Origin: an uncultured Brevinematales bacterium
GTDB lineage: Bacteria; Spirochaetota; Brevinematia; Brevinematales; CAYRWR01
Reading direction: 5' to 3'
Length of the DNA: 64,000 nt
Assembly: GCA_964428015.1 (NCBI GenBank)
Contig: CAYRWR010000019.1
Coordinates: forward strand, 503-64,502
Shown here: piece by piece, positions 7,042 to 27,948 of the stretch
Position numbering within the stretch: the stretch's first letter is position 1
How the letters are laid out: every line of letters begins with the position of its first letter
Position numbers and translations under genes: made by a program
The notes under the pieces: generated by a model
Seen by the model: the letters and a program-made list of their open reading frames with translations, nothing else
What the model was told of the DNA's origin: nothing
The model's database searches: none

Positions 7042-7216
7042 TTTTCCTCCCTTCTTTATGGTAGCATAGACCTTAAAAAATGCCAATTGTTTAGAATACA
7101 TTTAAGGCGGCTTGCATGAAATAGTGCAAGAATCAGCGGATTTATGAAAGGGCTTCCGGTGAAAAAAAGAATTATTTCATACTCAGTTATGCACATAAGT
7201 CACATAGGTCAATGAA

Positions 7217-7232
7217 TGGCACATTAATTGCA
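7217..7232 (+). promoter_or_regulatory. sigma-54 promoter P1 (TGGCACattaaTTGCA)
   Basis: Exact match to the RpoN -24/-12 consensus TGGCAC-N5-TTGCW, 209 nt upstream of ATG 7441. Confidence 0.75.
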
Positions 7233-7440
7233 TATTCTTGTGCAAGCGATTCCAGTCTCTTTCCAGGATGGAAGACGCGAAGATAAAAAATTATTTTTGA
7301 ATGAAGAATGGGTTATGGTGATGTACTTCTTTGGGGCCGTTCGGGCTCTCCCATTCCTTTCATTCATCCACTTTGCATCATTGGCTGATCTTACAATTTT
7401 TCAATCGAGGGTCGATTAAAAAATAGGAAAGGAGAGTGTT

Positions 7441-7938: not shown

Positions 7939-7949
7939 AGGGGGCCGGT

Positions 7950-10669: not shown

Positions 10670-10706
10670 GGGGGTCCGGAGCTTAGGCTTCGGGCCCCTT
10701 TTTTTA
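10670..10706 (+). terminator. rho-independent terminator after amylase 1
   Basis: The hairpin GGGGTCCG-loop-CGGGCCCC is followed by T7. Confidence 0.75.
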
Positions 10707-10867
10707 TAATCTCCGCGGCTCAAAAAATAGCAGAAATGCACATATGCACAAGGCATGCGCGATGCATTTTGTATATGCACAGAATTGCAAGGAAAACCAG
10801 CACAACCACAGGATATAAAAATTATAATTGTATTTCTGATATAGATATAAAAAATACCCTGTGTGAT

Positions 10868-10883
10868 TGGCACGTTAATTGCA
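10868..10883 (+). promoter_or_regulatory. sigma-54 promoter P2 (TGGCACgttaaTTGCA)
   Basis: Exact RpoN -24/-12 consensus, 186 nt upstream of ATG 11069. Confidence 0.8.
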
Positions 10884-10890: not shown

Positions 10891-10904
10891 TGTAAGTGCT
10901 TACA
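10891..10904. promoter_or_regulatory. 14-bp palindrome TGTAAGTGCTTACA (LacI/cre-like operator candidate)
   Basis: It starts exactly 7 nt after the -12 TTGCA and spans the expected transcription start. Confidence 0.55.
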
Positions 10905-11068
10905 TCTTCCTTACAGAAGATTGTAATCTAATAAAAAAAGAAAAAAGAATGAAAAAGGAAACGGTTCCCGCAACCATCTCAATTCCTCCAGGGATGCCAG
11001 TACCTTTTTCATTCTTTAAATATAAAAAAAATCTGAAAAATATAAAAAATCAGAAAAAGGAGAGTGTT

Positions 11069-11560
11069 ATGAAAAAGGTAGGTTTAGTGTTGTTTTTAAT
11101 GGTTTTCGCAGGTCTTGGTTCTTTGTATTCCCTAAATATTTTTGATGATGATTTTGACCAGTCTGCCACCACCATGGCCGGATGGAAGCTTAGTTCCACC
11201 ACCTATATCACCAAATATACCGGAACTTACAAACAGGGTCTGGCTGCCATGCAGGTCAGAAAGAACTATAATGCAGTCACTTATATCAATGTATCACCCT
11301 TTAAGAACATGGTCTTAAAATTTAAAATGGCCGCTTATTCTCTGGAAGCCGGTGAATACATCCGCTGTCAGTACAATATTGCCGGAACCTGGGTGACCGC
11401 GGCTACTCTGGCTGACGGTGCAGACAATGGAACATTCAAGAGTTACTCTGTGAGTATTCCTACCGGGACCACACTGCAGATTCGTTTTATCATGAATGGA
11501 ACCGCAACTGATGATTATGGATATGTCGATGATGTAATTTTGACCGGTGACCGCAAATAA
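11069..11560 (+). CDS. small secreted beta-sandwich/CBM-like protein, amylase-associated family, copy 2
   Basis: The RBS context AGGAGAGTGTTATGAAAAA is identical to that of copy 1. Signal peptide LVLFLMVFAGLGSLYS. The mature part is about 90 percent identical to copy 3 by eye. Confidence 0.8.
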   Translation: MKKVGLVLFLMVFAGLGSLYSLNIFDDDFDQSATTMAGWKLSSTTYITKYTGTYKQGLAAMQVRKNYNAVTYINVSPFKNMVLKFKMAAYSLEAGEYIRCQYNIAGTWVTAATLADGADNGTFKSYSVSIPTGTTLQIRFIMNGTATDDYGYVDDVILTGDRK

Positions 11561-11579
11561 AAAAAGTAAGGAGTCTAAC

Positions 11580-14500
11580 ATGAAAAAATTCAGAAGTTGG
11601 ATATTAGCAGCTCTGCTCCTGCTCTCAGCAGGACAGATTTTTGCTGTCCGTACTGTCGTGTTTATGTACAAACAGACAGTCACCGGACAGGATATCTTTA
11701 TCAAAGGCGGACATGACGCGGGTCTGGTACCCAGTGTCTACCCCAGCATGAGTGAACCTATTACTTATTATAATACCCTCAATACTACCACCGCGGCTAT
11801 AAAAGCCAATGACGCATCTCTGGATTGGGGTAGTGAATCTGCCCTGGACTGGACCACATCCCTATGGCCCGCTTCCTGGGGTGCCAAGAAGACCTATGCC
11901 GTAGACGGTTATGGTGAAGACCCCGAAAACACCATGGGCGACCATTGGTGGAAATTTGACGTAGATATGCTGGGAAACACCGGTGACTGGTTTGAATTTA
12001 AAGCATTTATGAGACAGGGTACTGCTGAATCCTGGGAAAACAATATTGCCCAGGCCGGCACTCCCTATACAACCATCAACCACTGGGGTAAAAAAGGCTA
12101 TATCACCAAAGTAACCTTTGGTGCTAATACCGTCACCTATGTGGCCCTGACTCCTCCCGTCAATCAGCCCCCAGTAGCAGCTCTTACCGCTACCCCTGCT
12201 ACAGCTGATACCGGCGTGGCTATTTCCTTTAGTGCTGCCGGCTCTACCGATCCTGAAGGTACCGCTCTGCAGTACCAGTTTGACTGGGAAAATGACGGCA
12301 CCTATGATACAGCCTATAGTACAACAGCTACCGCCAGCCATGCTTATACCACCTCCGGTACCAAGACCGTCAAAGTCCAGGTCAAAGACGGCGGCGGCCT
12401 CACTGCTACCAAAACCGTAACTGTAACCATCACCGTGCCTACTGTAAAGACCCTGATCGTACACTACCGTAACTCATCAGCCTGGGCTACACCTAAGATG
12501 CACTGGGGATACAGCTACTATACAGCCGTATCTGACCTTTCCTCATCCGGTACTGACACTTTTGGTGCCAAGTTCCAACTGGAATGGACAGCTGCGGATA
12601 CCTATCTGACCACCTGTTTCAACAATGGTTCTACAGCCTGGGATGGTTCTGACCGCCGTATCAATAAACCGGCAACCTTCCCTTCTGAAGTATGGGTGTT
12701 GAACAATGATTCTACCGTTTACCTTAGCAATCCTATAGATGCTACTCCTCCTACTGTAGCCCTGTCCGCACCTGCCAACGGTGCCAGCCTGACCGGTACA
12801 GTAACCATCAGCGCTACCGCCAGTGACAACGTAGCCGTGACAAAAGTAGAGTTTTACTACGGCACTACCAAAATAGGTGAAGATGTTTCCTCTCCTTATT
12901 CCCTGTCCTGGAATACCGCTCTGGTTCCCAATGGCTCTTATGCCATTACAGCCAAAGCCTTTGACGCGGCTGGCAATAACACCACTTCTGCTTCACGTAC
13001 AGTGACCACCGCTAATGCTAATGTGCCTCCTGTCGCCAATGCTGGTTCTGATATTACCGTACAGGTAGGCGGAACAGCTCAGTTCAATGCTACTCAGTCT
13101 TACGATCCTAATGGCAGTATTGTCTCCTATCAGTGGTCCAATGGTCTGTCCGGTGCTACTCCCAGTAAAGTGTACAGCACCCTGGGTACTTATACAGTAA
13201 CCCTGACTGTGACAGACAATAACGGCGCTACCGCTACTGATACTGTAGTAGTCAATGTGGTCAACCAGATTGTCCGCACAGACCCTCGTGAAGATACCAT
13301 TTATTTTGTCATGACAACTCGTTTCTACGACGGTGACCCTGCCAATAACATTCACTGCTGGGATGACGCGCAAGCCGGTAATCCTGACAGCGACCCTGCC
13401 TGGAGAGGAGATTTTGAAGGCCTCATCCAGAAACTCGACTATATCAAAGCCCTGGGATTCTCAGCTATCTGGATCACACCTGTAGTGCAGAACGCCAGTG
13501 GATATGATTACCATGGTTATCATGCCTTGAACTTCTCCAAAGTGGACCCCCGCTACAAGACCACCGGGGATGCCAGTGCTGAAGTATCCTACCAGAGACT
13601 GATAAATGCCGCACATGCCAAGGGTATGAAGATTATCCAGGATATCGTGCTCAATCACTCCGGTAATTTCGGAGAAGAAAATCTCTATCCCTTGTTTAAG
13701 AAAGATCCGGCTATTTCTGACACCACAGCTGCTTCTCTGGTCCGCATCGACGGTGGAAAACTGCCTGCCAACTACGCTACCTTGACACCGGGCGAACAAT
13801 ACGGCGCGCGTATTTCCGCTATGAAAGAAGATACTATTGATACCACTTTCAAATATCACCATGAAAAAAGTATGTCCTGGGAAAGCTATTCTGTACAGAC
13901 CGGACAGATCGCGGGAGACTGTGTTGACCTCAATACAGAAAACCCTGCTGTCAAGAACTATCTGGTCAGCGCCTATAAGAAATACATCGATATGGGTGTA
14001 GATGGCTTCCGTCTGGATACAGTGAAGCATATTTCCCGTCTGGCCATGAATAAATGGTATGTACCTGAACTGCTGAACTATGCCGGCAATAACTTCTATT
14101 ACTTTGGAGAAGTGTGCAGCCGCTACCGCCAGATCTGGAATAACGGAATACCTGCAATTTCTGCACCCTTCTATACCTGGAAAGAAAATGTGTCCTATCC
14201 CTGGAGTGAATCAGACCGTACAGTCAATGAAGCATCTGTTTTCCAGAACTGGAATGACAACGACACTATGGATAATCTGCGCGAAACCGGCAATCACTGG
14301 CTGAATGGGAATGCCTACCATACTCCTGACTGGTCCTATCGCAGTGGTTTGGACGTCATCGACTTCCCCATGCACTGGAATTTCAACAATGCCTGGGATG
14401 CCTGGGGTGTAGCTTTAAGCGGCGACAAGTACTATAGCGATGCTACCTTTAATGTGACCTATGTAGACAGCCATGACTATGCTCCGGACGGAGCTCCTGA

Positions 14501-15110
14501 AAATCAGCGTTTCGCGGGCAGCCAGTCCACCTGGGCTGAAAACCTGAGTCTGATGTTTACCTTCCGCGGTGTGCCTACTATTTACTACGGATCAGAAATT
14601 GAATTTAAGAAAGGTGCTCCTATTGATGTAGGCCCCAATGCTCCTCTGTCCACTACCGGACGTGCTTACTTTGGTGACAATATCACCGGGACGATTAATG
14701 TCTCTGGATTTGGATACTACAGCGGTGCTACCGGAAACATCGCCAATACTCTGAATCACCCTCTGGCTAAACATATCATCCGTCTGAACCAGATACGCCG
14801 GGCTGTGCCTGCTCTGCAGAAGGGACAGTATTCGACCGCTGACATCTCCGGTGGAATGTCCTTCAAACGCAGATATACCAATGGCGCGGTAGACAGTTTT
14901 GCCCTGGTAACCGTGAGCGGTACTGCTACTTTCAACAACATTCCTAACGGTACCTATAAAGATTGTGTCACCGGACAGGTGATCAATGTGACCGGTGGCA
15001 GTCTGACTGCTACATGTAACGGAAAAGGCAACATCCGCGTGTTCGTACTGGATCTGCCTGGAAACCCTGCACCCGGAAAGATTGGTCAGGACGGGACCTA
15101 TATCTACTAA
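11580..15110 (+). CDS. secreted multidomain GH13 alpha-amylase (module X, PKD, CBM25/26-like, Ig-like, PKD, GH13)
   Basis: An AAGGAG RBS precedes ATG 11580. GH13 regions DIVLNHSG, GVDGFRLDTVKHI, FGEVCS and YVDSHDY. Starch-binding-like segment TLIVHYRNSSAW...FNNGSTAWDGSD. Two PKD-like segments. Confidence 0.92.
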   Translation: MKKFRSWILAALLLLSAGQIFAVRTVVFMYKQTVTGQDIFIKGGHDAGLVPSVYPSMSEPITYYNTLNTTTAAIKANDASLDWGSESALDWTTSLWPASWGAKKTYAVDGYGEDPENTMGDHWWKFDVDMLGNTGDWFEFKAFMRQGTAESWENNIAQAGTPYTTINHWGKKGYITKVTFGANTVTYVALTPPVNQPPVAALTATPATADTGVAISFSAAGSTDPEGTALQYQFDWENDGTYDTAYSTTATASHAYTTSGTKTVKVQVKDGGGLTATKTVTVTITVPTVKTLIVHYRNSSAWATPKMHWGYSYYTAVSDLSSSGTDTFGAKFQLEWTAADTYLTTCFNNGSTAWDGSDRRINKPATFPSEVWVLNNDSTVYLSNPIDATPPTVALSAPANGASLTGTVTISATASDNVAVTKVEFYYGTTKIGEDVSSPYSLSWNTALVPNGSYAITAKAFDAAGNNTTSASRTVTTANANVPPVANAGSDITVQVGGTAQFNATQSYDPNGSIVSYQWSNGLSGATPSKVYSTLGTYTVTLTVTDNNGATATDTVVVNVVNQIVRTDPREDTIYFVMTTRFYDGDPANNIHCWDDAQAGNPDSDPAWRGDFEGLIQKLDYIKALGFSAIWITPVVQNASGYDYHGYHALNFSKVDPRYKTTGDASAEVSYQRLINAAHAKGMKIIQDIVLNHSGNFGEENLYPLFKKDPAISDTTAASLVRIDGGKLPANYATLTPGEQYGARISAMKEDTIDTTFKYHHEKSMSWESYSVQTGQIAGDCVDLNTENPAVKNYLVSAYKKYIDMGVDGFRLDTVKHISRLAMNKWYVPELLNYAGNNFYYFGEVCSRYRQIWNNGIPAISAPFYTWKENVSYPWSESDRTVNEASVFQNWNDNDTMDNLRETGNHWLNGNAYHTPDWSYRSGLDVIDFPMHWNFNNAWDAWGVALSGDKYYSDATFNVTYVDSHDYAPDGAPENQRFAGSQSTWAENLSLMFTFRGVPTIYYGSEIEFKKGAPIDVGPNAPLSTTGRAYFGDNITGTINVSGFGYYSGATGNIANTLNHPLAKHIIRLNQIRRAVPALQKGQYSTADISGGMSFKRRYTNGAVDSFALVTVSGTATFNNIPNGTYKDCVTGQVINVTGGSLTATCNGKGNIRVFVLDLPGNPAPGKIGQDGTYIY
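11646..12149 (+). other. module X, N-terminal copy in amylase 2
   Basis: Same conserved sequence as 8016-8519. Boundaries approximate. Confidence 0.7.
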
Positions 15111-15127
15111 GTATTGCCATATGTATA

Positions 15128-15159
15128 AATGGGCTGCCGCAAAGGCAGCCCATTTTTTT
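15128..15159 (+). terminator. rho-independent terminator after amylase 2
   Basis: The hairpin AAATGGGCTGCC-loop-GGCAGCCCATTT is followed by a T-run. Confidence 0.85.
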
Positions 15160-15187
15160 ATTAAAGGGTATCTGTGACACATGGCAG

Positions 15188-15216
15188 TTGAAATTGTTTT
15201 TTAAAAGTAGTATAAT
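15188..15216 (+). promoter_or_regulatory. candidate sigma-70 promoter TTGAAA-17-TATAAT
   Basis: TTGAAA at 15188-15193 and TATAAT at 15211-15216 lie 27 nt upstream of ATG 15243. Confidence 0.55.
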
Positions 15217-15242
15217 ATTATTAATCTTTTAGGGGGTTCGGT

Positions 15243-16178
15243 ATGCGGTATATACTTATGATAGTCTTGAGTTTTATTATCTTTTCCTGTGCTCCCTCAG
15301 AAGAACCGTTGGACAAAGCCATAGATGAAGTGGTTATCATTACTCTGAATATGCACACCTACCAGGAAGCAAACCAGGATGCCAAATTTGATATTATTGC
15401 GCATGCCATCTGGTATTATCAAGCAGATTTTGTGGCCCTTCAGGAATGTGCTCAGGATATGAGCTCGACAATAGTTGATAATATTGGCGGTGCAAATATA
15501 AGAAATGACAATATGGCTTTGATTCTTCAAGAACGGCTAAAGACAGACTATCAACTGGATTACTACTATAATTGGGCGTGGGCACACTATGGATTTGGAT
15601 ATTATGAAGAAGGGGTAGCGGTGATGTCATTGTATCCTCTAACCGATTTAACTAATATCTGGATTTCTACTTCTCATTCTGCAAGTGATTTAGCATCCCG
15701 TAAAGCAGTTTCTGGAAGTTGTTTTGTGTCCCGGATAAATCAACATGTTCATTTTATCTCTGCTCATTTTCAACCCATGTCTTCAATTTCTGATACAGAA
15801 CCTAAAAACCAGGTAATAAGACTGAAAAATCTGGTAGAAAGTAATTATACTGCCGGAAACTTGGTTCTCGTCTGCGGGGATTATAACAATCAACCCACTG
15901 AGTCTGACCCTCGCTGGTCATCTACCTATCTTAACATGAGGACAAATAGCATTGTTTATACTGATACATTCCTGGTTGACAATCCCACAGCGAATAATTT
16001 GCCAGAAAATTCTATTTTTGATACGGTCAAAGGTACATATCCAGGAAGAATTGACTATATTTTTATGCGGACCAATAGCAACTATAGGGTCATCTCATCT
16101 GACATCATTTTTACCAGTGATAATCTAGGCCTGGTTTCAGATCATTTTGGAGTAGTCACACGGATTAAAAAACAATAA
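15243..16178 (+). CDS. endonuclease/exonuclease/phosphatase (EEP) family lipoprotein
   Basis: Lipobox IIFSC. EEP-type motifs ITLNMHTY, VALQEC, CGDYN and the C-terminal SDHFGV. Confidence 0.8.
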   Translation: MRYILMIVLSFIIFSCAPSEEPLDKAIDEVVIITLNMHTYQEANQDAKFDIIAHAIWYYQADFVALQECAQDMSSTIVDNIGGANIRNDNMALILQERLKTDYQLDYYYNWAWAHYGFGYYEEGVAVMSLYPLTDLTNIWISTSHSASDLASRKAVSGSCFVSRINQHVHFISAHFQPMSSISDTEPKNQVIRLKNLVESNYTAGNLVLVCGDYNNQPTESDPRWSSTYLNMRTNSIVYTDTFLVDNPTANNLPENSIFDTVKGTYPGRIDYIFMRTNSNYRVISSDIIFTSDNLGLVSDHFGVVTRIKKQ

Positions 16179-16194
16179 ACCAGTTCAAAAATTA

Positions 16195-16226
16195 AAATCC
16201 CCGGGTAATAAGACCCGGGGATTTTT
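16195..16226. terminator. bidirectional terminator between convergent genes
   Basis: The hairpin AAATCCCCGGG-loop-CCCGGGGATTT has A- and T-runs on the two sides. Confidence 0.85.
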
Positions 16227-16241
16227 CGGTACTTTCTTTTG

Positions 16242-17879
16242 TCAAAACATAAAGCTACGCAGAAGGTCTTCCATGGCTCCACTCACAGCCAGGTCAACTG
16301 CTTTTTGCCCCCTGTCATCAACACTAAAAATTTTATCCCGGAGTACTTTGATGTTTTTTCTGGCTTCAGCCACATTATCGGTCAGAGCGTACCAGTGGAG
16401 CAGGGTACCTCCATGATAGGCCAGATATAACTGCATCGCTGTCATTCCCTGAGGGCCGGGTAAATCAACCAGGTTTCGTTTTTTACCATAACGAAGGATT
16501 TCTTTATAGTTAGCTGTGATAGCCCCCCACAGCAAGTCGTATTTAGGATATTTCTTGATGAAGAGCTTGAAACTGGTTTCATGTGTATCACTGCGCAGCA
16601 TGATGTCTCTCACAATATTGGTGACTCCCCGGTCCAGGGCCAGGATTAGCGGAGTGTTTCCATCAGAGTCTGTGGTTTCCAGGTCAGCTCCTTTTTCCAG
16701 CAGCAAATTGACCCATTGGGCTCGGCTGTCTTTGACCGCAGTTAGAAGAAGGGAGTTCATCTCCGGTTTCGCAGTCTGTGCCAGATTGACTGTTTTGAGG
16801 TAACCGGGTTGATCCTGCTGATACAGGAGGGTGAGGAGTTCTGTCCACTCTCCGGGCCGAACCTTTGCCCCCAGAGATTGCAATACCTGAATCATATCTG
16901 AATCGTTGTTTTTAAAGGCAGTAAAGAGCAAGCTGTTTTCATTATCCAGGACAGCATTGACATCTCCGCCTTTAAAAAACAGGCTGGTAACCCAGGGTAT
17001 CCTTTCATCTTTCACAGCCCATAACAGCACCTGGTCTTTGAGGCGATTTTTCTGCTGGCTATTTAAGACAGTTTGTGCTGTTTCCAGGTCATCTTTCTGA
17101 TAGAGATCTTTGATGTAGGCCAGGTTCTGTTCATAGCTCATGCCAACCCCGTATTGTATCAGAAATTTTGCTATATCATTATGGCCCTTTTGTCTGGCCA
17201 GTTCTGCCAGATTGATCGATGTTATGGTTTCGCCTGGTTTAGTTTCCGGGACCACCTGCTGGGAAATATCAGCACCTTTGGCAAATAATAATTCCACCCA
17301 ACGGATACGGCCATCCCGTACCGCCCAGAGCAGTGCCTGATCGATTACCCGGGGGTATACTGCTTTTTCCAGTAACATACCTGCTAAAGCTAAATTATTC
17401 TTATTATAAGCGATCTTAATCAGGTCAAGACAGTCATTTTCTTCCAGGCGGATATCCTGAGTGATGAAGAGCTTCACCGCATCCAGTTGATTGTTGGAGT
17501 AGGCACATTGCAGTATCTGAGGATCAAGTTCCAGTCCGTTTTTGAACAACAAAGGGATACATTGACGTGTGTCATCCTTATCTCTGGCCAGAAGATAAAC
17601 CAAAGGTGATGAATTATTATATTTTATATTAAGATCAGCGCCCTTTTGGAGAAGGTAAGTCATGAGGTCTGGGTTAAATTTGATATAATTTGCCAGATAA
17701 AAACCCATAACAGGTTCTTTTTTTAAATCTACTGAACCAGCCTCTACCTGTCTTTTTACTTCACTGAAATCACTGTTTGATAATGCAGTCCAGAAACTGA
17801 CCGGCCAGATTGATGATGTCAATGTGAAGAAAAATAGAAAGGCCAGGAATCTTTTCACAGTATCCTTCCCCGGAAACAT
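16242..17879 (-). CDS. secreted ankyrin-repeat protein
   Basis: N-terminal signal FLAFLFFFTLTSSIW. Multiple ANK-like units, including KGADLETTDSDGNTPLILALDRG, KGADISQQ, GADLNIKYNNSSPL and GGDVNAVLDNENSLLF. Confidence 0.85.
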   Translation of the reverse strand: MFPGKDTVKRFLAFLFFFTLTSSIWPVSFWTALSNSDFSEVKRQVEAGSVDLKKEPVMGFYLANYIKFNPDLMTYLLQKGADLNIKYNNSSPLVYLLARDKDDTRQCIPLLFKNGLELDPQILQCAYSNNQLDAVKLFITQDIRLEENDCLDLIKIAYNKNNLALAGMLLEKAVYPRVIDQALLWAVRDGRIRWVELLFAKGADISQQVVPETKPGETITSINLAELARQKGHNDIAKFLIQYGVGMSYEQNLAYIKDLYQKDDLETAQTVLNSQQKNRLKDQVLLWAVKDERIPWVTSLFFKGGDVNAVLDNENSLLFTAFKNNDSDMIQVLQSLGAKVRPGEWTELLTLLYQQDQPGYLKTVNLAQTAKPEMNSLLLTAVKDSRAQWVNLLLEKGADLETTDSDGNTPLILALDRGVTNIVRDIMLRSDTHETSFKLFIKKYPKYDLLWGAITANYKEILRYGKKRNLVDLPGPQGMTAMQLYLAYHGGTLLHWYALTDNVAEARKNIKVLRDKIFSVDDRGQKAVDLAVSGAMEDLLRSFMF

Positions 17880-17966
17880 TTAAAATTCAAACAAAAATAT
17901 GTTTCCTATATAAACAGGATAAAAGGAAAATAGAAAAAATCCAGCGAAATATTAAATATATCTGAA

Positions 17967-18920
17967 TTATTGATAAATAATCAGGCCAGGTTGAGGTTTA
18001 AGTGCCAGAACATCAGCCGGAGACATGAGGGGAGAGTCATAATGCAGTCCTTTGGCCTGAACTCCGGGATAGTACCACAGTTTGAAGCCTTTATAGGGCA
18101 TATTGGTGGCCAGGGAGTTAAATGCGTGTGTGCCTAATTTCTGCCAGGGTGGGCCCCAGCCGGAAGTGTTGTGTACCAAAAGTACCGGATAATAGTCTGC
18201 CTGTATTTTTTCACGATGCAGGATCATTTGATATTTAAACTGGTGGAATACCAGTTGATGAATTCCACGGATGTGATTGGACAAAATATACGACTGCATG
18301 ATGCTCTGAATCTGGTTTATTTCTTCGCCTGTGATATGCCCGATTTCTTTCATGGGGCGGTCTGTACGCCATTCAGGGTCTACAGCCAGTTGGACATTAG
18401 GGTATTTCAGAAAAGGCAGCATTTTCCGGATTGCGTTTTCCGGGCCGTATTTTCCGATCTGGTGATCGAGGTAGAGCAGCATCTTATTGGAATAGGTATA
18501 ATTGATAAAGGACATCACAATATTAGAGTTCAGATAAGCCAGTTCTCCACCCGGTTGACAGGTAGCATAGATGAGATAGAATGCAGGCACCACTCCCTTA
18601 TCGCCATTTGTAGCATCATAGTTGCTGGCTTCAGTGAGCAGCATCTTACGTAGTTCATCTTTGGAGTAACGCCCCAGTATGCCCATATACCGGGAGTTAG
18701 GGTGGCCATAGTAAGCTATAATATGATTGCTGACAAACATATTGGTATTGTAGAAGAATTCATCCAGAGGATTCATAACAGGCGGGATATCGGATGACAC
18801 TCCTGTTAACAGCTTCCAACCTGCCTGTGACAGTTGGGACAGGCGGGGCAGAGAAAAAAAGACCGCAGTTAAGAACAGAGCAACAATCAGTAGTTTTATA
18901 CGAAGGTCATTTATTTTCAC
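17967..18920 (-). CDS. membrane-anchored hypothetical protein
   Basis: GTG start with an AAGGA RBS. One N-terminal TM helix (LLIVALFLTAVFF) and an extracytoplasmic domain of about 280 aa. No confident family. Confidence 0.55.
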   Translation of the reverse strand: MKINDLRIKLLIVALFLTAVFFSLPRLSQLSQAGWKLLTGVSSDIPPVMNPLDEFFYNTNMFVSNHIIAYYGHPNSRYMGILGRYSKDELRKMLLTEASNYDATNGDKGVVPAFYLIYATCQPGGELAYLNSNIVMSFINYTYSNKMLLYLDHQIGKYGPENAIRKMLPFLKYPNVQLAVDPEWRTDRPMKEIGHITGEEINQIQSIMQSYILSNHIRGIHQLVFHQFKYQMILHREKIQADYYPVLLVHNTSGWGPPWQKLGTHAFNSLATNMPYKGFKLWYYPGVQAKGLHYDSPLMSPADVLALKPQPGLIIYQ

Positions 18921-19209
18921 AGATTTATCCTTAATAAGAACTTAAAAAAGCACAGTATTTTAACATGAGCATCAGGAATAAGCAATTCCGGGGAATAGGG
19001 TGGTCGTCTTACCCTTTGATCAGTTTTTAATTATTTACCGACTTTGCTATCCCGGCTATTGTGGAAAATATTTTATGTAAGCGTTACTTTTTACAACTAA
19101 CAATGTGCATTTTATTTGGGCGTGAATTTGCACTGCAAATATGCCCAGTGCAGATTGTCTACAGTGTAATTTATTGTCTGACATAGAGCTGCACATTTAT
19201 CACTAAACT

Positions 19210-19225
19210 TGGCACGGGAATTGCA
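19210..19225 (+). promoter_or_regulatory. sigma-54 promoter P3 (TGGCACgggaaTTGCA)
   Basis: Exact RpoN -24/-12 consensus, 177 nt upstream of ATG 19402. Confidence 0.8.
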
Positions 19226-19232
19226 ATATAAA

Positions 19233-19246
19233 TGTAAGTGCTTACA
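19233..19246. promoter_or_regulatory. 14-bp palindrome TGTAAGTGCTTACA (operator candidate)
   Basis: Identical to the P2 copy and again exactly 7 nt after TTGCA. Confidence 0.55.
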
Positions 19247-19401
19247 GCTGGATTGCATAGCAAGTGCAATTTAGAAAAGCGGCGAGTGAAAAAAGAGGTT
19301 GGTTGTGTATCCGGTTGCCTTGCCCAGGCAAATCTTCATCTATCCAAAAACCTTTTTTTTCCGGTATCGTAATATTCAAAAAATTTACCGGGAGGTATGT
19401 C

Positions 19402-19899
19402 ATGTCCAAGTACAGAACTTTAGTGTTAAGTTTCTTGGTTGTTTTGTTAGCTACTGTCAGTTCTTTCGCTTTAACCATCTTTGATGACGATTTTGACCAG
19501 TCCGCTACTACTATGGCGGGATGGAAACTCAGTTCCACCACTTATATCACCAAATATACCGGAACCTACAAACAGGGTCTGGCAGCTATGCAGGTAAGAA
19601 AGAATTATAATGCTGTTACTTATTTAAACGTAGCTCCCTTTAAGAACATGGTGCTGAAGTTTAATATGGCTGCATATTCTCTGGAAGCCGGTGAATACAT
19701 CCGCTGCCAGTATAATATTGCTGGTACCTGGGTGACCGCAGCTACCCTGGCCGACGGCGCAGACACTGGTGCTTTTAAAAGTTATTCTGTTTCTATTCCT
19801 ACAGGAAATATCCTGCAGATACGTTTTATCATGAACGGTTCTGCTACAGATGATTATGGCTATGTAGACAGCGTGATCCTCACCGGTGACCGCAAATAA
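19402..19899 (+). CDS. small secreted beta-sandwich/CBM-like protein, amylase-associated family, copy 3
   Basis: A GGAGG RBS at 19391-19395 precedes the start. Signal peptide LVLSFLVVLLATVSSFA. Mature domain is paralogous to copies 1 and 2. Confidence 0.8.
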   Translation: MSKYRTLVLSFLVVLLATVSSFALTIFDDDFDQSATTMAGWKLSSTTYITKYTGTYKQGLAAMQVRKNYNAVTYLNVAPFKNMVLKFNMAAYSLEAGEYIRCQYNIAGTWVTAATLADGADTGAFKSYSVSIPTGNILQIRFIMNGSATDDYGYVDSVILTGDRK

Positions 19900-19925
19900 T
19901 ATAAAATCAATATAAGGAGAATAGG

Positions 19926-22748
19926 ATGAGAAAATTATTGTTAGCTCTGCTTCTTATGGCTTCAGCCTCCTCGGCTTTTGCTGTCAGGACAGTGGTGTTC
20001 ATGTACAAACAGACTGTGACCGGTCAGGACATCTTTATTAAGGGTGGACATGACGCGGGTCTGGTTCCCAGTGTCTATCCCAGTATGAGTGAACCTATCA
20101 CTTATTTTAATACCCTCAATACTACTACCGCGGCTATCAAAGCCAATGACGCATCTCTGGATTGGGGTAGTGAATCCGCCCTGGACTGGACCACCTCCCT
20201 GTGGCCCGCTGCCTGGGGTCCCAAGAAAACTTACGCCGTAGATGGATACGGTGAAGATCCCGAAAACACCATGGGCGACCACTGGTGGAAATTTGACGTG
20301 GATATGATCGGTAACTCCGGGGACTGGTTCGAATTTAAAGCCTTTATGAGACAAGGTACTGCTGAATCCTGGGAAAACAATATCGCCCAGGCCGGTACTC
20401 CTTATGCCACCATCAACCACTGGGGTAAAAAAGGCTATATCACCAAAGTGACATTTGGTGCCAATACGGTGACTTTTGTTCCTCTGAACACACCGGTCAA
20501 TCAGCCTCCCGTGGCTGCTCTGACTGCTTCTCCTGCCTCTGGTACCGTAGCTACTTCTTTTACCTTTAATGCTTCAGGTTCAACCGATCCTGAAGGTACC
20601 GCTCTGCAGTACCAGTTTGACTGGGAAAATGACGGTACCTATGATACAGCATATAGCACCACTGCTACTGCTACACACGTATTTACCACCATAGGCACCA
20701 AGACTGTAAAAGTTCAGGTCAAAGACGGCGGCGGACTTACCGCTACCAAGACTGTCAGCGTCACCATCAATAACACCGCTCCGACTGCTTCCTTTACTGT
20801 TACTCCCGCCAGCGGCACATTAGCTACTACTTTTACCGTTGACGCTTCCGGCTCTACCGACCTGGAAGACGGCACAGCTCTGCAGTACAGATGGGATTTT
20901 GAAAACGACGGCACCTTTGACACTGCTTATTCCACTACCAAGACTGCTACCAAGAAATATACCACTCTGGGTACCAAGACTATCAAACTGGAAGTCAAAG
21001 ATTCATCCGGTCTGTTGTCTACCATTACCAAGACTGTATCTGTAGCAGACGGCGGATTGAACCCTCACCCGGGATACTATTCCGGCAAGCCCGGTGCCCA
21101 CCTCTACTCCAACGGTACTGAATTCTCCATCTGGGCCCGTACCGCTACCTCTGTAAAAGTCCGCACCACCACCGGCGGTGTGACTACAGATACCACTCTG
21201 ACCAAGATCTCCGGCGGCGTCAATGACTGCATCTGGTGGGGCGTGGTTCCTACTGCGATTAAGGGTACTGAATACAAATTCGTGATCGACGGTGTTACCC
21301 TTACTGCTGACCCCTACAGCCAGTACAACCGTTATTCCGGCGGCAACTCTGTAGTAGTTGATCATTCAACCTTTAACTGGACTGATAGTTCCTGGGGTCG
21401 TCCCGGTTGGTCATACTATGCTATTTATGAACTGCATATCAAGGACCTGACCTCAGCTGATACCACCGTGACTGTAGCTAACCGTGGAAAATACCGCGGT
21501 GTGATCGAAAAAATGCCTTACCTCAAGAGCCTGGGTATCACCGCTATCGAACTGATGCCTGTGTCTGAATTCCCCGATGCCGGCTATGGCTGGGGTTATA
21601 ATACCTCTCTGTATTTCGCTCCTGAAAGCGGCTACGCCAATAATCCTTACAATGCTCAGGACGGTGTAGATCAGCTTAAAGAACTGATCAATGCTGCTCA
21701 TGCCAACGGTATCGCCGTAGTTCTGGACATGGTATTCAACCATACTGCTAACAATGACAACTGGCTGTGGGTGATCGACAGTCTGGCATACTTCAGCGGA
21801 TCCACTCCCTGGGGTAACCGCCTCAATACTGCTCATCCTATAGTACAAAGATTAGGTAAAGATAATCTGGAAATGTGGATGAAAGACTACCATGTAGACG
21901 GATTCCGTTTTGACGCTACCGGTAACGGCTGGATCGATTACAACTTTATCTATGCTGTAAAGAACCATTGTTCTGCCATTGACCCCAACGTCTATTTTGT
22001 TTACGAAAACCTGCCCAACAGTACCGGTCTGCGCACCTGGGGTGGACAGTGGGCTGACGGTTACCATGACTATGGTATCAACCTGATCTGTAACTGGAAC
22101 GGTGCTAACATGAGCGGAATGGCCAAGTACATCTATTACTCCAAAGATGACGGCTGGCCTGCCAGCCCCGTGGAAGCTCTGAACTATGTAGAGTCCCATG
22201 ACGAAGACACTCTGGGCAGACTGCTGGGTCTGGCTGGTTATAACGATGAAGGCAAGAGATGGAGAGGCCGTGCTGCAGCTGTGATGCTGGCTACTTCTCT
22301 GGGTGTGCCTATGTTGTGGATGGGTCAGGAATTCCTCCGTCCCCGCGAAGGTCAGGATATCTCTGAGATACCTCTGAACTGGACTTACCTCACTACCTTC
22401 TCCACAGTGAAGGATTACTATGCCGGAGTATTCACACTCAGAAAGAACAATCCTGCTCTGCGCCCTGCTAATGAAAGCGGATTCGCATGGCAGTATACTC
22501 CCTGGACTGGTGACGCCAATGTAATGGGTTATTCCATGACCACCACCAATCCTGCGGACAAGAAATTCGTGATCCTGCTGAATTTCAACTCTTCCGCCCG
22601 CACCGTCAGTCTGGGATTCCCAGCTAACGGTACCTGGACCAAAGTGGTCACAGAGACCGCAGTGAACGGCACATCTACTATTAGTGTGGCTAATAACCGC
22701 GCTACTGTCACCATCGAAGGTTCTTCTGGAATCATCTTCCAGCAGTAA
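19926..22748 (+). CDS. secreted GH13 debranching/pullulanase-type enzyme (module X, 2 PKD, CBM48-like, GH13)
   Basis: E-set/CBM48-like segment GAHLYSNGTEFSIWARTATSVKV. GH13 regions DMVFNHTA, VDGFRFDATG, VYENL and YVESHDE. Exact specificity cannot be assigned. Confidence 0.88.
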   Translation: MRKLLLALLLMASASSAFAVRTVVFMYKQTVTGQDIFIKGGHDAGLVPSVYPSMSEPITYFNTLNTTTAAIKANDASLDWGSESALDWTTSLWPAAWGPKKTYAVDGYGEDPENTMGDHWWKFDVDMIGNSGDWFEFKAFMRQGTAESWENNIAQAGTPYATINHWGKKGYITKVTFGANTVTFVPLNTPVNQPPVAALTASPASGTVATSFTFNASGSTDPEGTALQYQFDWENDGTYDTAYSTTATATHVFTTIGTKTVKVQVKDGGGLTATKTVSVTINNTAPTASFTVTPASGTLATTFTVDASGSTDLEDGTALQYRWDFENDGTFDTAYSTTKTATKKYTTLGTKTIKLEVKDSSGLLSTITKTVSVADGGLNPHPGYYSGKPGAHLYSNGTEFSIWARTATSVKVRTTTGGVTTDTTLTKISGGVNDCIWWGVVPTAIKGTEYKFVIDGVTLTADPYSQYNRYSGGNSVVVDHSTFNWTDSSWGRPGWSYYAIYELHIKDLTSADTTVTVANRGKYRGVIEKMPYLKSLGITAIELMPVSEFPDAGYGWGYNTSLYFAPESGYANNPYNAQDGVDQLKELINAAHANGIAVVLDMVFNHTANNDNWLWVIDSLAYFSGSTPWGNRLNTAHPIVQRLGKDNLEMWMKDYHVDGFRFDATGNGWIDYNFIYAVKNHCSAIDPNVYFVYENLPNSTGLRTWGGQWADGYHDYGINLICNWNGANMSGMAKYIYYSKDDGWPASPVEALNYVESHDEDTLGRLLGLAGYNDEGKRWRGRAAAVMLATSLGVPMLWMGQEFLRPREGQDISEIPLNWTYLTTFSTVKDYYAGVFTLRKNNPALRPANESGFAWQYTPWTGDANVMGYSMTTTNPADKKFVILLNFNSSARTVSLGFPANGTWTKVVTETAVNGTSTISVANNRATVTIEGSSGIIFQQ
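19983..20486 (+). other. module X, N-terminal copy in the GH13 debranching-type enzyme
   Basis: Same conserved sequence as the other copies. Boundaries approximate. Confidence 0.7.
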
Positions 22749-22766
22749 ACTGTTAAGCACTCATCA

Positions 22767-22798
22767 GGGGCTGTCGAAAGGCAGCCCCTTTTTTTTTT
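22767..22798 (+). terminator. rho-independent terminator
   Basis: The hairpin GGGGCTG-loop-CAGCCCC is followed by T10. Confidence 0.85.
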
Positions 22799-23098
22799 GT
22801 CCGGTATATTCCCGGTCATTGTACAGGGGAGGGGAGAGCGTGGATCACAGCTGTGCTTTCAGGCTGCTGGGTAGGGGTTGTGAACCTGCTGAGGAGATAT
22901 TTTTCTCCTTCGTTTTTTAGGAAATTGCCCTGTATTCTCTGATCTGCTTTCTTTAGACTGGTAAAGCTCCGCTAGAGCCGCACTGCTTTCCCGCATTTGA
23001 GGCGTCATGCATCCGTTTATGCACAAAATTCTACTGCCCCCTCTTTTTAGAATTTATAATTCATTGCTATTAAAAGAGTTATAATATAGCTTATCAAC

Positions 23099-23114
23099 TG
23101 GCATGCTAATTGCA
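23099..23114 (+). promoter_or_regulatory. sigma-54 promoter P4 (TGGCATgctaaTTGCA)
   Basis: One mismatch to TGGCAC-N5-TTGCA, with GG and GC retained. It lies 53 nt upstream of ATG 23167. Confidence 0.7.
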
Positions 23115-23121
23115 ATTATAC

Positions 23122-23135
23122 TGTAAGTGCTTTCA
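23122..23135. promoter_or_regulatory. 14-bp near-palindrome TGTAAGTGCTTTCA (operator candidate)
   Basis: It lies 7 nt after TTGCA. One arm mismatch relative to the P2 and P3 copies. Confidence 0.5.
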
Positions 23136-23166
23136 ATAAAGAAAACATTTTAGAAAGGAGAGGGTT

Positions 23167-24957
23167 ATGATGAAAAATGTGGTAAGAGGCTTGTCCGTGT
23201 TTTTATGGCTGGTCCTGTCTGTCGCTGTCTATGCCGGGGAGCTGGATGGCAGTAGTCAGGCCGTGATGTTACAGGGTTTCCATTGGACCTCCTGGCAGTC
23301 CGGCACCTGGTGGAATACCATTGCCAACAATGCCCAGGATATCAAGGATACCGGTTTTACTATGGTGTGGTTCCCACCTGCCAGTGATGCCGGCAGTGAC
23401 CAGGGTTATCTGCCCCGTAAGCTGGAAGTACTCACTTCCAAATACGGTAATCAGTCTCAGTTGCAGACAGCGATTTCCCAATTGAACAGTAAGGGTGTGA
23501 TGTCCATAGCGGATATCGTAATAAACCACCGTGTGGGTACAGCCAACTGGGCTGATTTTACCCAGCCTACCTGGGGCTCGGACTCAGTATGTAGCGGAGA
23601 CGAATGGCCGGGTGCCACCGGTGCTCCCGATACCGGAGATCCTTACGCCGCTGCTCGTGACATTGACCACACCAAAGCTTATGTCCAGACCTCTATCATC
23701 GGATGGATGAACTGGCTCAAGAACACCATCGGATTCAAAGGCTGGAGATATGACTATGTCAAAGGTTATTCCGGTTATTACAATGGAATATATAACAATG
23801 CTACCGCTCCTCTTATGAGTGTGGGTGAATACTGGCCCGATATTACCGGTGATTATTATGCCTCCGGCGCCAGTGTGAATTATCACAAGCAGAAACTGGT
23901 AGATTGGATCAATGCTACCGGCGGCAAATCCGCGGTATTTGACTTTACCACCAAGTGGCAGCTGCAGCTGGCAGTAGAACGCAGTGAATACTGGCGACTG
24001 TCTGATGCCGGAAAACCTATCGGCGGTATCGGCTGGTGGCCGGCCAAGATGGTGACCTTTGTGGATAATCATGACACCGGTCCTTCTCCCAGTATCAGTC
24101 AGAATCACTGGCCTTTCCCGTCCAGCGGAGTAATGCAGGGTTATGCCTACATCCTGACACACCCGGGTATCCCCAGTGTCTACTGGGTGCATGTTTATGA
24201 CTGGGGTATGAAAGCAGAAATCAAGACATTGCTGGCCATTCGTAAGGCTCAGGGTATTACTTCTACTTCTACTGTAGTTATTAATGCTGCAGACAGCAGT
24301 AAGTATGCTGCTACTATCGATGGAAAAGTCGCTGTAAAGATAGGCCCGGGATCCTGGAGCCCCGGCACAGGCTGGACACAGGCTGCTTCCGGTGTTAATT
24401 ACGCGGTATGGACCAAGAGTACTACTCCTCCACCGCCTCCTTCCGGTACAGTACGGACCGTAGTATTTATGTATAAAGAAACCGTAACCGGGCAGGATAT
24501 TTTTATCAAAGGCGGACATGATGCCGGTCTGGTGCCTTCCGTTTACCCCACAATGAATGAACCTATTACTTATCTTAATACCAAAAATACTACCACCGCG
24601 GCTATAAAAGCCAATGATGTCAGTCTGGATTGGGGTAGTGAATCCGCTCTGGACTGGACTTGTAATATCTGGCCATCCTCCTGGGGGACCAAACGGACCT
24701 ATGCGGTAGATGGATATGGAGAAGACCCTGAAAATAAGTGGGGTACCCACTGGTGGAAGTTTGATGTCAATATGACCGGAGTCAAGGGTGACTGGTTTGA
24801 ATTCAAAGCCTTCCTGAGACAGGGGACTTCTGAAAACTGGGAGTCCAATATCGCCCAGGCTGGAACACCTCAGGCAACTATCAATCACTGGGGCAAGAAG
24901 GGTTATATTACCCGGGTAATTTTTGCCAATAACTGGGTGGAATTTACCAGTCTCTGA
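23167..24957 (+). CDS. secreted plant/archaeal-type GH13 alpha-amylase with C-terminal module X
   Basis: VMLQGFHW, DIVINHR, GWRYDYVKGY, VGEYW and FVDNHDTG. A Pro-rich linker TTPPPPPSG precedes module X. ATG 23170 is an alternative start. Confidence 0.92.
   Translation: MMKNVVRGLSVFLWLVLSVAVYAGELDGSSQAVMLQGFHWTSWQSGTWWNTIANNAQDIKDTGFTMVWFPPASDAGSDQGYLPRKLEVLTSKYGNQSQLQTAISQLNSKGVMSIADIVINHRVGTANWADFTQPTWGSDSVCSGDEWPGATGAPDTGDPYAAARDIDHTKAYVQTSIIGWMNWLKNTIGFKGWRYDYVKGYSGYYNGIYNNATAPLMSVGEYWPDITGDYYASGASVNYHKQKLVDWINATGGKSAVFDFTTKWQLQLAVERSEYWRLSDAGKPIGGIGWWPAKMVTFVDNHDTGPSPSISQNHWPFPSSGVMQGYAYILTHPGIPSVYWVHVYDWGMKAEIKTLLAIRKAQGITSTSTVVINAADSSKYAATIDGKVAVKIGPGSWSPGTGWTQAASGVNYAVWTKSTTPPPPPSGTVRTVVFMYKETVTGQDIFIKGGHDAGLVPSVYPTMNEPITYLNTKNTTTAAIKANDVSLDWGSESALDWTCNIWPSSWGTKRTYAVDGYGEDPENKWGTHWWKFDVNMTGVKGDWFEFKAFLRQGTSENWESNIAQAGTPQATINHWGKKGYITRVIFANNWVEFTSL
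24451..24954 (+). other. module X, C-terminal copy
   Basis: VRTVVFMYKETVTGQDIFIKGGHDAGLVP...HWWKFDVNM...DWFEFKAF...INHWGKKGYITRV. Confidence 0.7.
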
Positions 24958-24981
24958 TAGTCTATTATACTTAGATTCAAA

Positions 24982-25014
24982 AGAGGGTTACCTTAGGGTA
25001 ACCCTCTTTCTTTT
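24982..25014 (+). terminator. rho-independent terminator
   Basis: The hairpin AGAGGGTTAC-loop-GTAACCCTCT is followed by a T-rich tract. Confidence 0.75.
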
Positions 25015-25126
25015 GTAGGATTATAAATGCACCATGCACTTTGTACCTGCACAAAAACGCACATAGCTATAACCTCTTAAATTTTAACTTTATAAATAGT
25101 AAAGAGTTAACATTTTAGATTTTTTT

Positions 25127-25142
25127 TGGCACAGTATTTGCA
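25127..25142 (+). promoter_or_regulatory. sigma-54 promoter P5 (TGGCACagtatTTGCA)
   Basis: Exact RpoN consensus, 63 nt upstream of ATG 25205. Confidence 0.8.
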
Positions 25143-25149
25143 ATAAACA

Positions 25150-25163
25150 TGTAAGAGCTTACA
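25150..25163. promoter_or_regulatory. 14-bp palindrome TGTAAGAGCTTACA (operator candidate)
   Basis: It lies 7 nt after TTGCA. The arms are identical to the P2 and P3 copies; only the central dinucleotide differs. Confidence 0.55.
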
Positions 25164-25204
25164 GTGAATTTACTGTAAAATCTATAAAAAAAGGAGAGGA
25201 CGAG

Positions 25205-27084: not shown

Positions 27085-27948
27085 ATGAAGAAAATTGTGG
27101 TCTTATTTATTATTTTAGCAAGTTTGGCATCCTGTGCCGGTTTGAAAATAAACAGTCCTGTACAATTAGGCAGACTTAGTGATGGGACTCTGGTAGTTTT
27201 TCAGGATAAAAAATTGTACACCATTAGTCCTGACAGGGGATTGTCTACTCAGGATCTGGACTGTGATGACTTTGTGCTGGATGGTGATAGAATGGCCATG
27301 ATCCGAAAGGGTCAGGCTATAGAAATCCGGTACACAAATCATTCTGTACTTACACAACCTTTTGCCAAAGGATTTAGTATAGACAAAGGTAAGAATACCT
27401 GGCTGGTTCAGGATAAGAAATATCTCAATGTCTATTCCAATGATTACCAGGTCAATTTCTATAGCCTGGAAGAACCTTTCAAAAAAGGCAGTATCTGGAA
27501 CAACCGGTTCCTGATATCTCAAAAAGATGACTCTCTTAAAATCTGGGATCTCAGACAGGATGGATCTGTTACCCTAAAACAGGTAATTACCAATGTACAG
27601 GATTTTGTCCTGCATGATGAGCAGCCCCTGGTGTTCCTGATTCAGCATTCCAATCAGATTCTATCCTATATGATCTATGCCAATCAGCTCACCACCCTGG
27701 ATACCCTGCCTTTTCCGGTGGATACCATGGACTACGCACCACAGGCCAGGACACTGATTGTCAGAAATAAGGGTGTCACTTTACTATATCATCAGGATAA
27801 CGGCAGTATCGAGATGCTTCAATTTCCTCTGCAGGACATCAGTTATGATGTCAGCCGTAATGAAATATTGTTACTATCCAATCAGACACTTCAGATTCTG
27901 AATATGGAAAGTAAGGAAAAACTGCAGAGTTACAAATTGAACCAATAA
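27085..27948 (+). CDS. hypothetical lipoprotein
   Basis: An AGGAGG RBS precedes the start and the lipobox is LASC. Beta-rich repetitive sequence. No family recognised. Confidence 0.6.
   Translation: MKKIVVLFIILASLASCAGLKINSPVQLGRLSDGTLVVFQDKKLYTISPDRGLSTQDLDCDDFVLDGDRMAMIRKGQAIEIRYTNHSVLTQPFAKGFSIDKGKNTWLVQDKKYLNVYSNDYQVNFYSLEEPFKKGSIWNNRFLISQKDDSLKIWDLRQDGSVTLKQVITNVQDFVLHDEQPLVFLIQHSNQILSYMIYANQLTTLDTLPFPVDTMDYAPQARTLIVRNKGVTLLYHQDNGSIEMLQFPLQDISYDVSRNEILLLSNQTLQILNMESKEKLQSYKLNQ

Follow-up and report, generated by a model that had tools for sequence, protein, structure and literature searches.

Amylase operons and their promoters

The 64-kb stretch of contig CAYRWR010000019.1 analysed here in its full length (the window) contains five units that begin with a sigma-54-type promoter and continue into genes of the GH13 alpha-amylase family. 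A 14-bp palindrome lies just downstream of each of these promoters, P1 to P5, and is the subject of this report. The promoters belong to the 16-mer TGGCAY-N5-TTGCA, which occurs five times in the window against about 0.03 expected per strand. All five copies are intergenic and lie on the coding strand. They fit the sigma-54 pattern TGGCAC-N5-TTGCW, with GG at -24, GC at -12 and fixed spacing, and are kept in orthologues. Strong intrinsic terminators follow the P1 to P4 units, and the five promoters therefore head separate transcription units (Table 1).

The nearest genome, found by a pattern scan of 185,579 species representatives, is the uncultured Brevinematales metagenome-assembled genome (MAG) GCA_964537555.1. 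It is syntenic with the window and shows 78% identity in ArgRS and 71-82% in the amylases. The loci L003, L084 and L092 belong to this MAG. Together with L085, L086, L087, L088, L091 and L096 they add about 125 kb to the window and bring the clade DNA examined to about 190 kb. These relatives were retrieved via amylase homologues and via a clade-specific 160-aa protein family; they are sampled around amylase genes, which biases any count of regulon breadth. L097 comes from a closer relative than the MAG, and its small secreted protein is 81% identical to that of the window. Four sludge metagenome runs contain 87-98% of the window's sampled words.

Clusters of TGCAC, GTGCA and ATGCA repeats lie about 90-150 nt 5' of all five promoters and are listed in Table 1 as putative upstream activating sequences (UAS). 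They are conserved in the MAG orthologues, and some of them are palindromic (TGCACATATGCA, TGCACCATGCA). This is the usual enhancer position for a sigma-54 activator, and by sequence and location the clusters are probably the enhancer of such a protein.

Table 1. Promoters, palindromes, leaders and genes of the five window units, and palindromes of related loci (offset: distance in nt from the -12 element to the palindrome)
Feature	Position	Strand	Sequence	Remarks
P1 sigma-54-type promoter	7217-7232	+	TGGCACATTAATTGCA	exact consensus; conserved in L097 and L084
P1 putative UAS	7112-7129	+	TGCAT/GTGCA repeats	repeat clustering
P1 putative operator	7241-7254	+	TGCAAGCGATTCCA	offset 8, central CG; 15.4 bits on the clade matrix
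P1 operon	7441-10646	+		165-aa secreted protein, then 898-aa PKD-domain GH13; terminator 10670-10699
P2 sigma-54-type promoter	10868-10883	+	TGGCACGTTAATTGCA	consensus match
P2 putative UAS	10736-10790	+	ATGCAC/TGCAT repeats	conserved in L003
P2 putative operator	10891-10904	+	TGTAAGTGCTTACA	offset 7; identical in MAG locus L003
P2 predicted 5' leader hairpin	10900-10926	+	UUACAUCUUC / GAAGAUUGUAA	includes right arm of the palindrome; RNAfold -7.5 kcal/mol, z = -2.5
P2 operon	11069-15110	+		163-aa secreted protein, then 1187-aa PKD/Big-domain GH13; terminator 15127-15155
P3 sigma-54-type promoter	19210-19225	+	TGGCACGGGAATTGCA	consensus match
P3 putative UAS	19105-19152	+	GTGCA/TGCAC repeats	conserved in L084
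P3 putative operator	19233-19246	+	TGTAAGTGCTTACA	offset 7; MAG orthologue TGAAAGTGCTTACA
P3 predicted 5' leader hairpin	19240-19280	+	core AUUGCA...UGCAAU	RNAfold -14.0 kcal/mol, z = -4.1
P3 operon	19402-22748	+		~165-aa secreted protein, then 940-aa PKD/CBM48 GH13 (pullulanase-like); terminator 22766-22789
P4 sigma-54-type promoter	23099-23114	+	TGGCATGCTAATTGCA	one mismatch against the TGGCAC form
P4 putative UAS	23007-23024	+	ATGCAT/ATGCAC repeats	repeat clustering
P4 putative operator	23122-23135	+	TGTAAGTGCTTTCA	offset 7; MAG orthologue TGTAAGAGCTTACA
P4 gene	23167-24957	+		596-aa secreted alpha-amylase, GH13 + Alpha-amyl_C2; terminator 24980-25009
P5 sigma-54-type promoter	25127-25142	+	TGGCACAGTATTTGCA	consensus match
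P5 putative UAS	25027-25062	+	ATGCAC/TGCAC/CGCAC repeats	conserved in L084
P5 putative operator	25150-25163	+	TGTAAGAGCTTACA	offset 7; MAG orthologue TGTAAGGGCTTGCA
P5 predicted 5' leader hairpin	25159-25178	+	UUACAGU-GAAUUU-ACUGUAA	RNAfold -10.3 kcal/mol, z = -4.5
P5 gene	25205-26980	+		591-aa secreted alpha-amylase, GH13 + Alpha-amyl_C2
MAG (L003, L084, L092), seven sigma-54 promoters before GH13 operons			TGTAAGCGATTGCA, TGTAAGTGCTTACA, TGAAAGTGCTTACA, TGTAAGCGCTCACG, TGTAAGAGCTTACA, TGTAAGGGCTTGCA, degenerate TGGAAGCGCTCCCG	offset 7 in 7/7
L088			TGTAAACGCTTACA, TGTAAGCGCTTGCA	offset 7
L088			TGTAAGGGCTTTCA	3 nt 5' of the -24 element (TGGCAT)
L086			TGTAAGCGGTTTCA	offset 11
L087			TGTAAGCGCTATCA	offset 10
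L096			TGTAAGCGGTTACA	offset 12
L097			TGCAAGCGATTCCA	offset 8
L085, orthologous amylase			TGTAAACGGTTGCA	2 nt past the -10 box of sigma-70-type TTGACC-17-TAAAAT

The 14-bp palindrome in the window

Exact matches to TGTAAGNGCTTWCA number four in the window, all on the + strand, where base composition predicts about 0.002-0.004 (64 kb, both strands). Allowing up to two mismatches raises the number to 8; shuffles average 2.48, and none of 100 reaches 8. Each of the four exact 14-mers starts exactly 7 nt past the last base of TGGCAY-N5-TTGCA. The coordinates, strand and offset given for these four in the original prediction are all correct. The same prediction treated P1 as a promoter without the palindrome, with CTTGTGCAAG in its place. 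The P1 site is in fact TGCAAGCGATTCCA, one nucleotide further from the promoter than the others, and CTTGTGCAAG overlaps its left half. The P1 copy is identical in L097, where it also has an offset of 8, though the spacer (aatatcac vs tattcttg) and the downstream leader differ. Its MAG orthologue is TGTAAGCGATTGCA, at an offset of 7.

Because the C of the GC dinucleotide is set as -12, the predicted +1 is the fourth palindrome base (TGT, then AAG), and the site extends from about -3 to +11. The palindrome thus covers the expected start, as had been proposed. An upstream candidate, TGTAAGCG at 19076, was rejected: it occurs once in the window, which is chance level, and is not conserved in the MAG.

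Occurrence in related genomes

The clade sites number 20, from seven genomes (window, L003/L084/L092, L085, L086, L087, L088, L096 and L097), and all 20 precede GH13 operons. The offset is 7 in 13 of them, and 8, 10, 11 or 12 in five. The remaining two lie just 5' of a -24 element (L088) and directly after a sigma-70-type -10 box (L085); in L085, too, A4/A5 of the site coincide with the predicted +1. Orthologous promoters in relatives retain the palindrome, mostly at the same offset, so that the refuting condition named in the original prediction, its absence from them, does not hold. The 7-nt offset itself, first described as fixed, holds for the 13 sites and is not universal. The more distant, AT-rich relative L091 has a sigma-70-type promoter, and the motif was not found there.

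Orthologous intergenic regions of the window and the MAG are only 41-67% identical in pairwise alignment. Four islands of conservation remain within them: UAS repeats, -24/-12 elements, 14-mer and Shine-Dalgarno sequence. The 7-nt spacer retains its length and varies in sequence.

The clade sites are also specific. Strong intergenic sites occur exclusively at GH13 promoters in the clade DNA; two intragenic matrix matches of 14-17 bits were found in L088. No site of 16.5 bits or more on the clade matrix is present in about 692 kb of unrelated amylase loci. JGI metagenome loci obtained by protein retrieval (80 loci, at most 64% identity) have the motif upstream of an amylase in no case and serve as a background set only. 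The pattern scan of the 185,579 species genomes, with offsets 0-20 allowed, gave three matches. Two of them, each with an offset of 7, fall in the Brevinematales MAG. The third, in Ammoniphilus, is judged unrelated or due to chance: about 0.7 chance matches are expected, and citrate synthase lies further downstream, with no sugar genes.

Ammoniphilus sp. YIM 78166 (L001) carries two SigL-type promoters, at 184-230 and 7676-7725, with TGTAA[AG]TGCTTTCA[GA]TGGAAAAC at offset 12. Both have a common upstream inverted repeat and precede paralogous small open reading frames (ORFs; MMIWKGEK...). This is a duplicated promoter-leader module with no amylase connection, and its cre-like 14-mer is likewise TG-centred.

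Of the GH13 operons that follow sigma-54 promoters, the window has five and the MAG seven. A third short paralogue of the amylases (592 aa; L084 9778-11779) occurs in the MAG and has its own sigma-54 promoter and the degenerate operator-like site TGTAAGCGCTCACG. It sits between the P3 and P4 units and is not in the window. The seventh MAG operon lies on a separate contig (L092). These extra promoter-gene units suggest that the regulon expands and contracts by whole promoter-gene modules. In L087, a related groundwater contig, the -24/-12 promoter TGGTACAATATTTGCA at 7286 (-) precedes amtB-glnB, a classical nitrogen regulon, and has no operator-like palindrome. The sigma-54 system therefore appears to be in general use in the clade.

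An alternative is that no separate factor is involved. The 14-mer could be an inherited promoter-proximal or initiation sequence, copied with duplicated promoters or preferred by the clade's sigma-54 holoenzyme. The promoters are indeed paralogous, some spacers are identical ('attatac' in P2, P4 and MAG P4), and the best conserved part of the site is the left arm over +1. However, the motif is also found at the sigma-70-type promoter of L085, 5' of the -24 element in L088 and at offsets 8-12, and the amtB-glnB promoter of L087 is a sigma-54 promoter without it. The flanks have diverged, whereas the 14-mer and its dyad symmetry are kept. An explanation without a separate factor is very unlikely.

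Base conservation and symmetry

The clade consensus is TGTAAG(C)GCTTACA, with position-by-position counts based on 17 scored sites. T1, G2 and C13 are present in 17/17 and A14 in 16/17. A4/A5 are mirrored by T10/T11, and the eight positions T1, G2, A4, A5, T10, T11, C13 and A14 are conserved in 15-17 of the 17. In the centre, G8 is invariant, and C7 is the commonest base at its position but is found in only 9 of the 20 clade sites. The four exact window sites have T, T, T and A at base 7 (C7 in 0/4), so that within the window CG is present in P1 alone.

DNA operator versus RNA leader

The conserved sequence could in principle act as RNA. A leader structure that controls stability or translation would then arise from the mRNA 5' end (AAGNGCUUACA...) and the inverted repeat behind it, with the DNA palindrome as a by-product. 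In most leaders of the window and the MAG, folding does predict 5'-proximal hairpins that beat shuffled sequences (z from -1 to -4.5). In the P5 hairpin, one A:U pair of the window has become G:C in the MAG, a compensatory change (TTACAGT...ACTGTAA to TTGCAGT...ACTGCAA), and in L085 ten transcribed bases of the site pair perfectly with a downstream repeat. Across the set, however, the amount of right-arm pairing further downstream stays within the level of shuffled sequences (67 vs 55 nt in 18 leaders), and no leader reaches P < 0.1. Hairpins are missing from L087 and from the two offset-7 L088 leaders. Among paralogues, neither their sequence nor their position is conserved, and the leaders have no Rfam match at the gathering threshold or at E<=1. 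The 2-nt centre of the palindrome is too small for a loop, and the L088 copy 5' of the promoter would not be transcribed from that promoter. T1 and G2 are invariant and yet lie upstream of the predicted +1. A function as RNA is, on this evidence, highly improbable.

The dyad symmetry, together with the invariant T1/G2 upstream of the predicted +1 at the offset-7 promoters, argues for a DNA operator for a symmetric dimer and not for an RNA element. As a comparison of sequences, the DNA-operator reading is well supported. The original prediction had preferred it too, on the ground that the left arm is only partly transcribed; the upstream copy in L088 and the other promoter type in L085 point in the same direction.

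The further repeats noted downstream of P2 (10910-10926) and P5 (25159-25178) are present. They had been offered as either RNA pairings or a second operator. They are read as the 3' halves of the predicted leader hairpins. The second operator was rejected in favour of these hairpins: the distances of the half-site repeats from the main site vary (21, 24, 29, 31 bp), and the repeats are not conserved. The leader hairpins are probably a separate, secondary feature that stabilises the mRNA 5' end.

The idea that the long leaders of P1-P3 share an RNA element was also considered and rejected, as these leaders have no common structure and no covariation. The P1 leader alignment likewise has no covariation. 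An 11-13-nt block, (A/T)GGGTTATGGTG, is invariant in the P1-type long leaders (four sequences) while its surroundings diverge. In the window, GGGTTATGGTG lies at 7310-7320, and it is also found at L097 ~1652, L084 ~1757 and L092 ~2231. No covariation-backed structure was found for this block, and it is not enriched elsewhere in the window.

Nature of the proposed binding factor

The proposed explanation is that a dimeric helix-turn-helix repressor, of LacI/GalR/CcpA type by the shape of the motif and encoded elsewhere in the genome, uses the 14-bp palindrome as its DNA operator. A rough probability of 0.6 is assigned to it. LacI-family motifs are even palindromes of 14-22 bp with conserved inverted repeats and a central CG (PMC4052901), and the clade sites are even palindromes with such repeats. 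The strong consensus of the catabolite-responsive element (cre), TGAAAGCGCTTTCA, reads T1G2A3A4A5G6C7G8C9T10T11T12C13A14 (PMC3463425), and TGTAAG(C)GCTTACA matches it at 12-13 of 14 positions. LacI-family transcription factors (TFs) control maltose and maltodextrin pathways in at least 8 orthologous groups (PMC4052901). The original prediction had looked to mal or amy genes for such a factor, and all target genes are of the alpha-amylase family. The LacI-type assignment is thus plausible from the motif.

Several points weigh against this explanation. No LacI-family gene or other regulator of the regulon is present in the 64-kb window, including unannotated ORFs at E<=1, and none is present in the ~125 kb of related loci (L003, L084-L088, L091, L092, L096) and their flanks. 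The search for LacI- or CcpA-family genes that the original prediction had proposed is thus negative over this DNA, and the family assignment is therefore one of motif shape only. The degenerate C7 is unlike cre and most even LacI-family motifs, in which the central C is conserved. The LacI/cre-like shape first noted thus applies to the clade consensus, which is near the strong cre, and less to the four sites originally listed, which have T or A at that base. Conservation is stronger in the left arm than in the right, possibly because the start-site context constrains it further. Many of the sites are paralogous or orthologous and hence not independent observations, and the transcription starts are predicted positions.

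The palindrome may instead be a DNA operator for a dimer of another family (CRP/FNR-, GntR- or ROK-type, or novel), or a site for an activator or anti-activator. The missing LacI gene and the degenerate central C, unlike typical LacI/cre sites (PMC4052901, PMC3463425), count in favour of this alternative. In the clade sites the arms are 2 nt apart (TGTAAG-NG-CTTACA). FNR-type proteins, too, bind palindromes of 14 bp, built of 5-nt arms around a 4-nt centre, which counts on the same side. Known recognition sequences for comparison are TGTAAA-N6-TTTACA for the TyrR box, TGTNA-N7-TNACA for TnrA/GlnR, and TGTGA-N6-TCACA and TTGAT-N4-ATCAA for CRP/FNR. The arm spacing of TyrR and TnrA/GlnR differs from that of the clade sites, and the conserved G6, G8 and C9 contrast with the free centre of CRP/FNR-type sites, so that the layout is not that of TyrR, CRP or FNR. 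In contrast, cre/GalR-type operators are matched at the 12-13 positions given above. A regulator of another family is thus doubtful, though it deserves serious consideration.

Within the preferred LacI-type explanation, a global regulator and a local one can be compared. Global CcpA/cre control, in which HPr(Ser-P) and HprK also take part, has sites over many unrelated catabolic operons; such a spread is not seen in the ~190 kb of amylase-centred clade DNA. Strong sites are found only at GH13 operons, and a local, MalR-like alpha-glucan repressor is therefore likelier than a CcpA-like global one. The repressor or catabolite roadblock first suggested for these promoters thus agrees with the operator shape, and the part of it that is less likely is global catabolite control. 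The sole regulator-type gene in the window is of the TetR family (58031-58612) and lies far from the amylase operons. No rpoN or sigma-54 activator gene was found in the window or the related loci.

Proposed mechanism

The sigma-54 holoenzyme would occupy the -24/-12 elements in a closed complex. An enhancer-binding activator at the TGCAC repeats, about 90-150 bp upstream, would remodel it. With a repressor dimer centred at about +4/+5, either promoter escape or the melting and loading of DNA would be blocked. Transcription would then depend on two things, an active activator and a released repressor, which amounts to an AND gate. The most plausible release signal would be a maltose- or maltodextrin-type inducer. 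The length of the 7-bp spacer is kept in three lineages while its sequence varies, which suggests a steric constraint between holoenzyme and repressor.

In a variant of this scheme, the strict spacing could point to a dedicated means of locking the sigma-54 closed complex: repressor and holoenzyme would occupy the promoter together, and the repressor would hold a poised polymerase instead of excluding it. The factor could come from an undescribed family or be a LacI-like protein that has adapted to a centre other than CG. This variant is rather unlikely. If it were true, this uncultured spirochaete lineage would offer a natural AND gate with two inputs for its secreted starch-degrading enzymes.

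Comparison with known systems

The closest precedent is the SigL-dependent rocG promoter of B. subtilis, which has a CcpA cre just downstream (PMC4348106). Both systems combine an enhancer-dependent -24/-12 promoter with a downstream 14-bp cre-type semi-palindrome, which serves in rocG as a repressor or roadblock site (PMC4348106). The motifs are also nearly the same, as the strong cre TGAAAGCGCTTTCA (PMC3463425) and TGTAAG(C)GCTTACA show. A cre/LacI-type site just 3' of a sigma-54 promoter is therefore an arrangement already known, and the conceptual gain here is modest. In contrast to rocG, which is from Bacillota, the present sites come from a Spirochaetota-like lineage, have a degenerate central C7, and, on each promoter of the regulon, cover the predicted +1 at a mostly conserved offset of 7 nt. 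They also occur at GH13 operons only, which suggests a local and not a global regulator.

The LacI repressors of the MalR, MdxR and MalI groups likewise have an even palindromic operator near promoters of alpha-glucan genes, and inducer-released repression would be expected here as in those groups (PMC4052901). The present promoters differ in being sigma-54 promoters with an upstream enhancer, and no regulator gene lies beside the targets. Among 1251 LacI-family TFs with even motifs, 1173 have a central CG, 49 another pair and 29 a degenerate centre; the present motif would belong to the ~6% (49 + 29 of 1251) with a non-CG or degenerate centre (PMC4052901). E. coli GalR/LacI operators, which overlap or flank the transcription start, have the TGTAAACG-type dyad, and repression there works through a steric block around +1. 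Among them, gal OE, GTGTAAACGATTCCAC, is close to the P1 site of the window, TGCAAGCGATTCCA. Unlike the present case, the E. coli operators act on the sigma-70 holoenzyme and often involve two operators and looping; no conserved second operator was found here. To our knowledge, the known cases of the MalR/MdxR/MalI type also sit on sigma-70 promoters.

Literature searches found no report of sigma-54-driven amylase regulons and no direct report of LacI operators at sigma-54 promoters. What is new here is the Brevinematales-like lineage, the occurrence of the site at all sigma-54 promoters of a set of secreted GH13 enzymes, its conserved offset and the degenerate centre. The whole secreted GH13 set would thus be under sigma-54 control with a second, repressor-type input. 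For these starch enzymes a full cis-regulatory architecture has been reconstructed, which comprises enhancer repeats, -24/-12 promoter, putative start-site operator, leader hairpin and terminator. Such promoters would be natural, spacing-constrained cases of repression at enhancer-dependent promoters, useful for locating the blocked step and for synthetic two-input promoters.

Other genes and observations

The first gene of the P1-P3 operons (7441-7938, 11069-11560, 19402-19899) encodes a secreted protein of ~165 aa with no Pfam match and the N-terminus ...TIFDDDFDQS.... The family is clade-specific, with 15 database members at E<=1e-10, and the pairs compared are 39-91% identical. It is also found in L084, L086, L088, L092, L096 and L097, where it always adjoins a GH13 gene and is usually the first gene of the operon. 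The protein may be an accessory starch-binding or chaperone-like component.

A ~290-aa lipoprotein, with a signal peptide and Cys and without a Pfam match, is encoded after the P5-type amylase (window 27085-27948, L084 16018-16881). It is present in five genomes (window, L084, L085, L086, L087) at 19-38% identity. This conserved gene was considered as a candidate regulator and rejected because it encodes a lipoprotein, which probably belongs to the alpha-glucan utilisation apparatus.

Two wastewater metatranscriptomes contain five short, low-depth contigs inside the amylase ORFs, from a strain 95-99% similar and with no 5'-end information. They cover 23424-23672, 25411-25630 and 26087-26972 of the window, which are parts of the P4 and P5 amylase genes. 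A closely related strain therefore expresses these amylase genes in situ.

Many ORFs of the window have no Pfam match, and its repertoire is atypical of a free-living sludge bacterium. At 16242-17879 (-), 49049-50329, 56033-57886 (-) and 60210-61322 (-), the window encodes an ankyrin-repeat protein, a leucine-rich-repeat protein and beta-helix proteins. The beta-helix protein at 56033-57886 (-) contains Chlamydia-PMP-like repeats as well.

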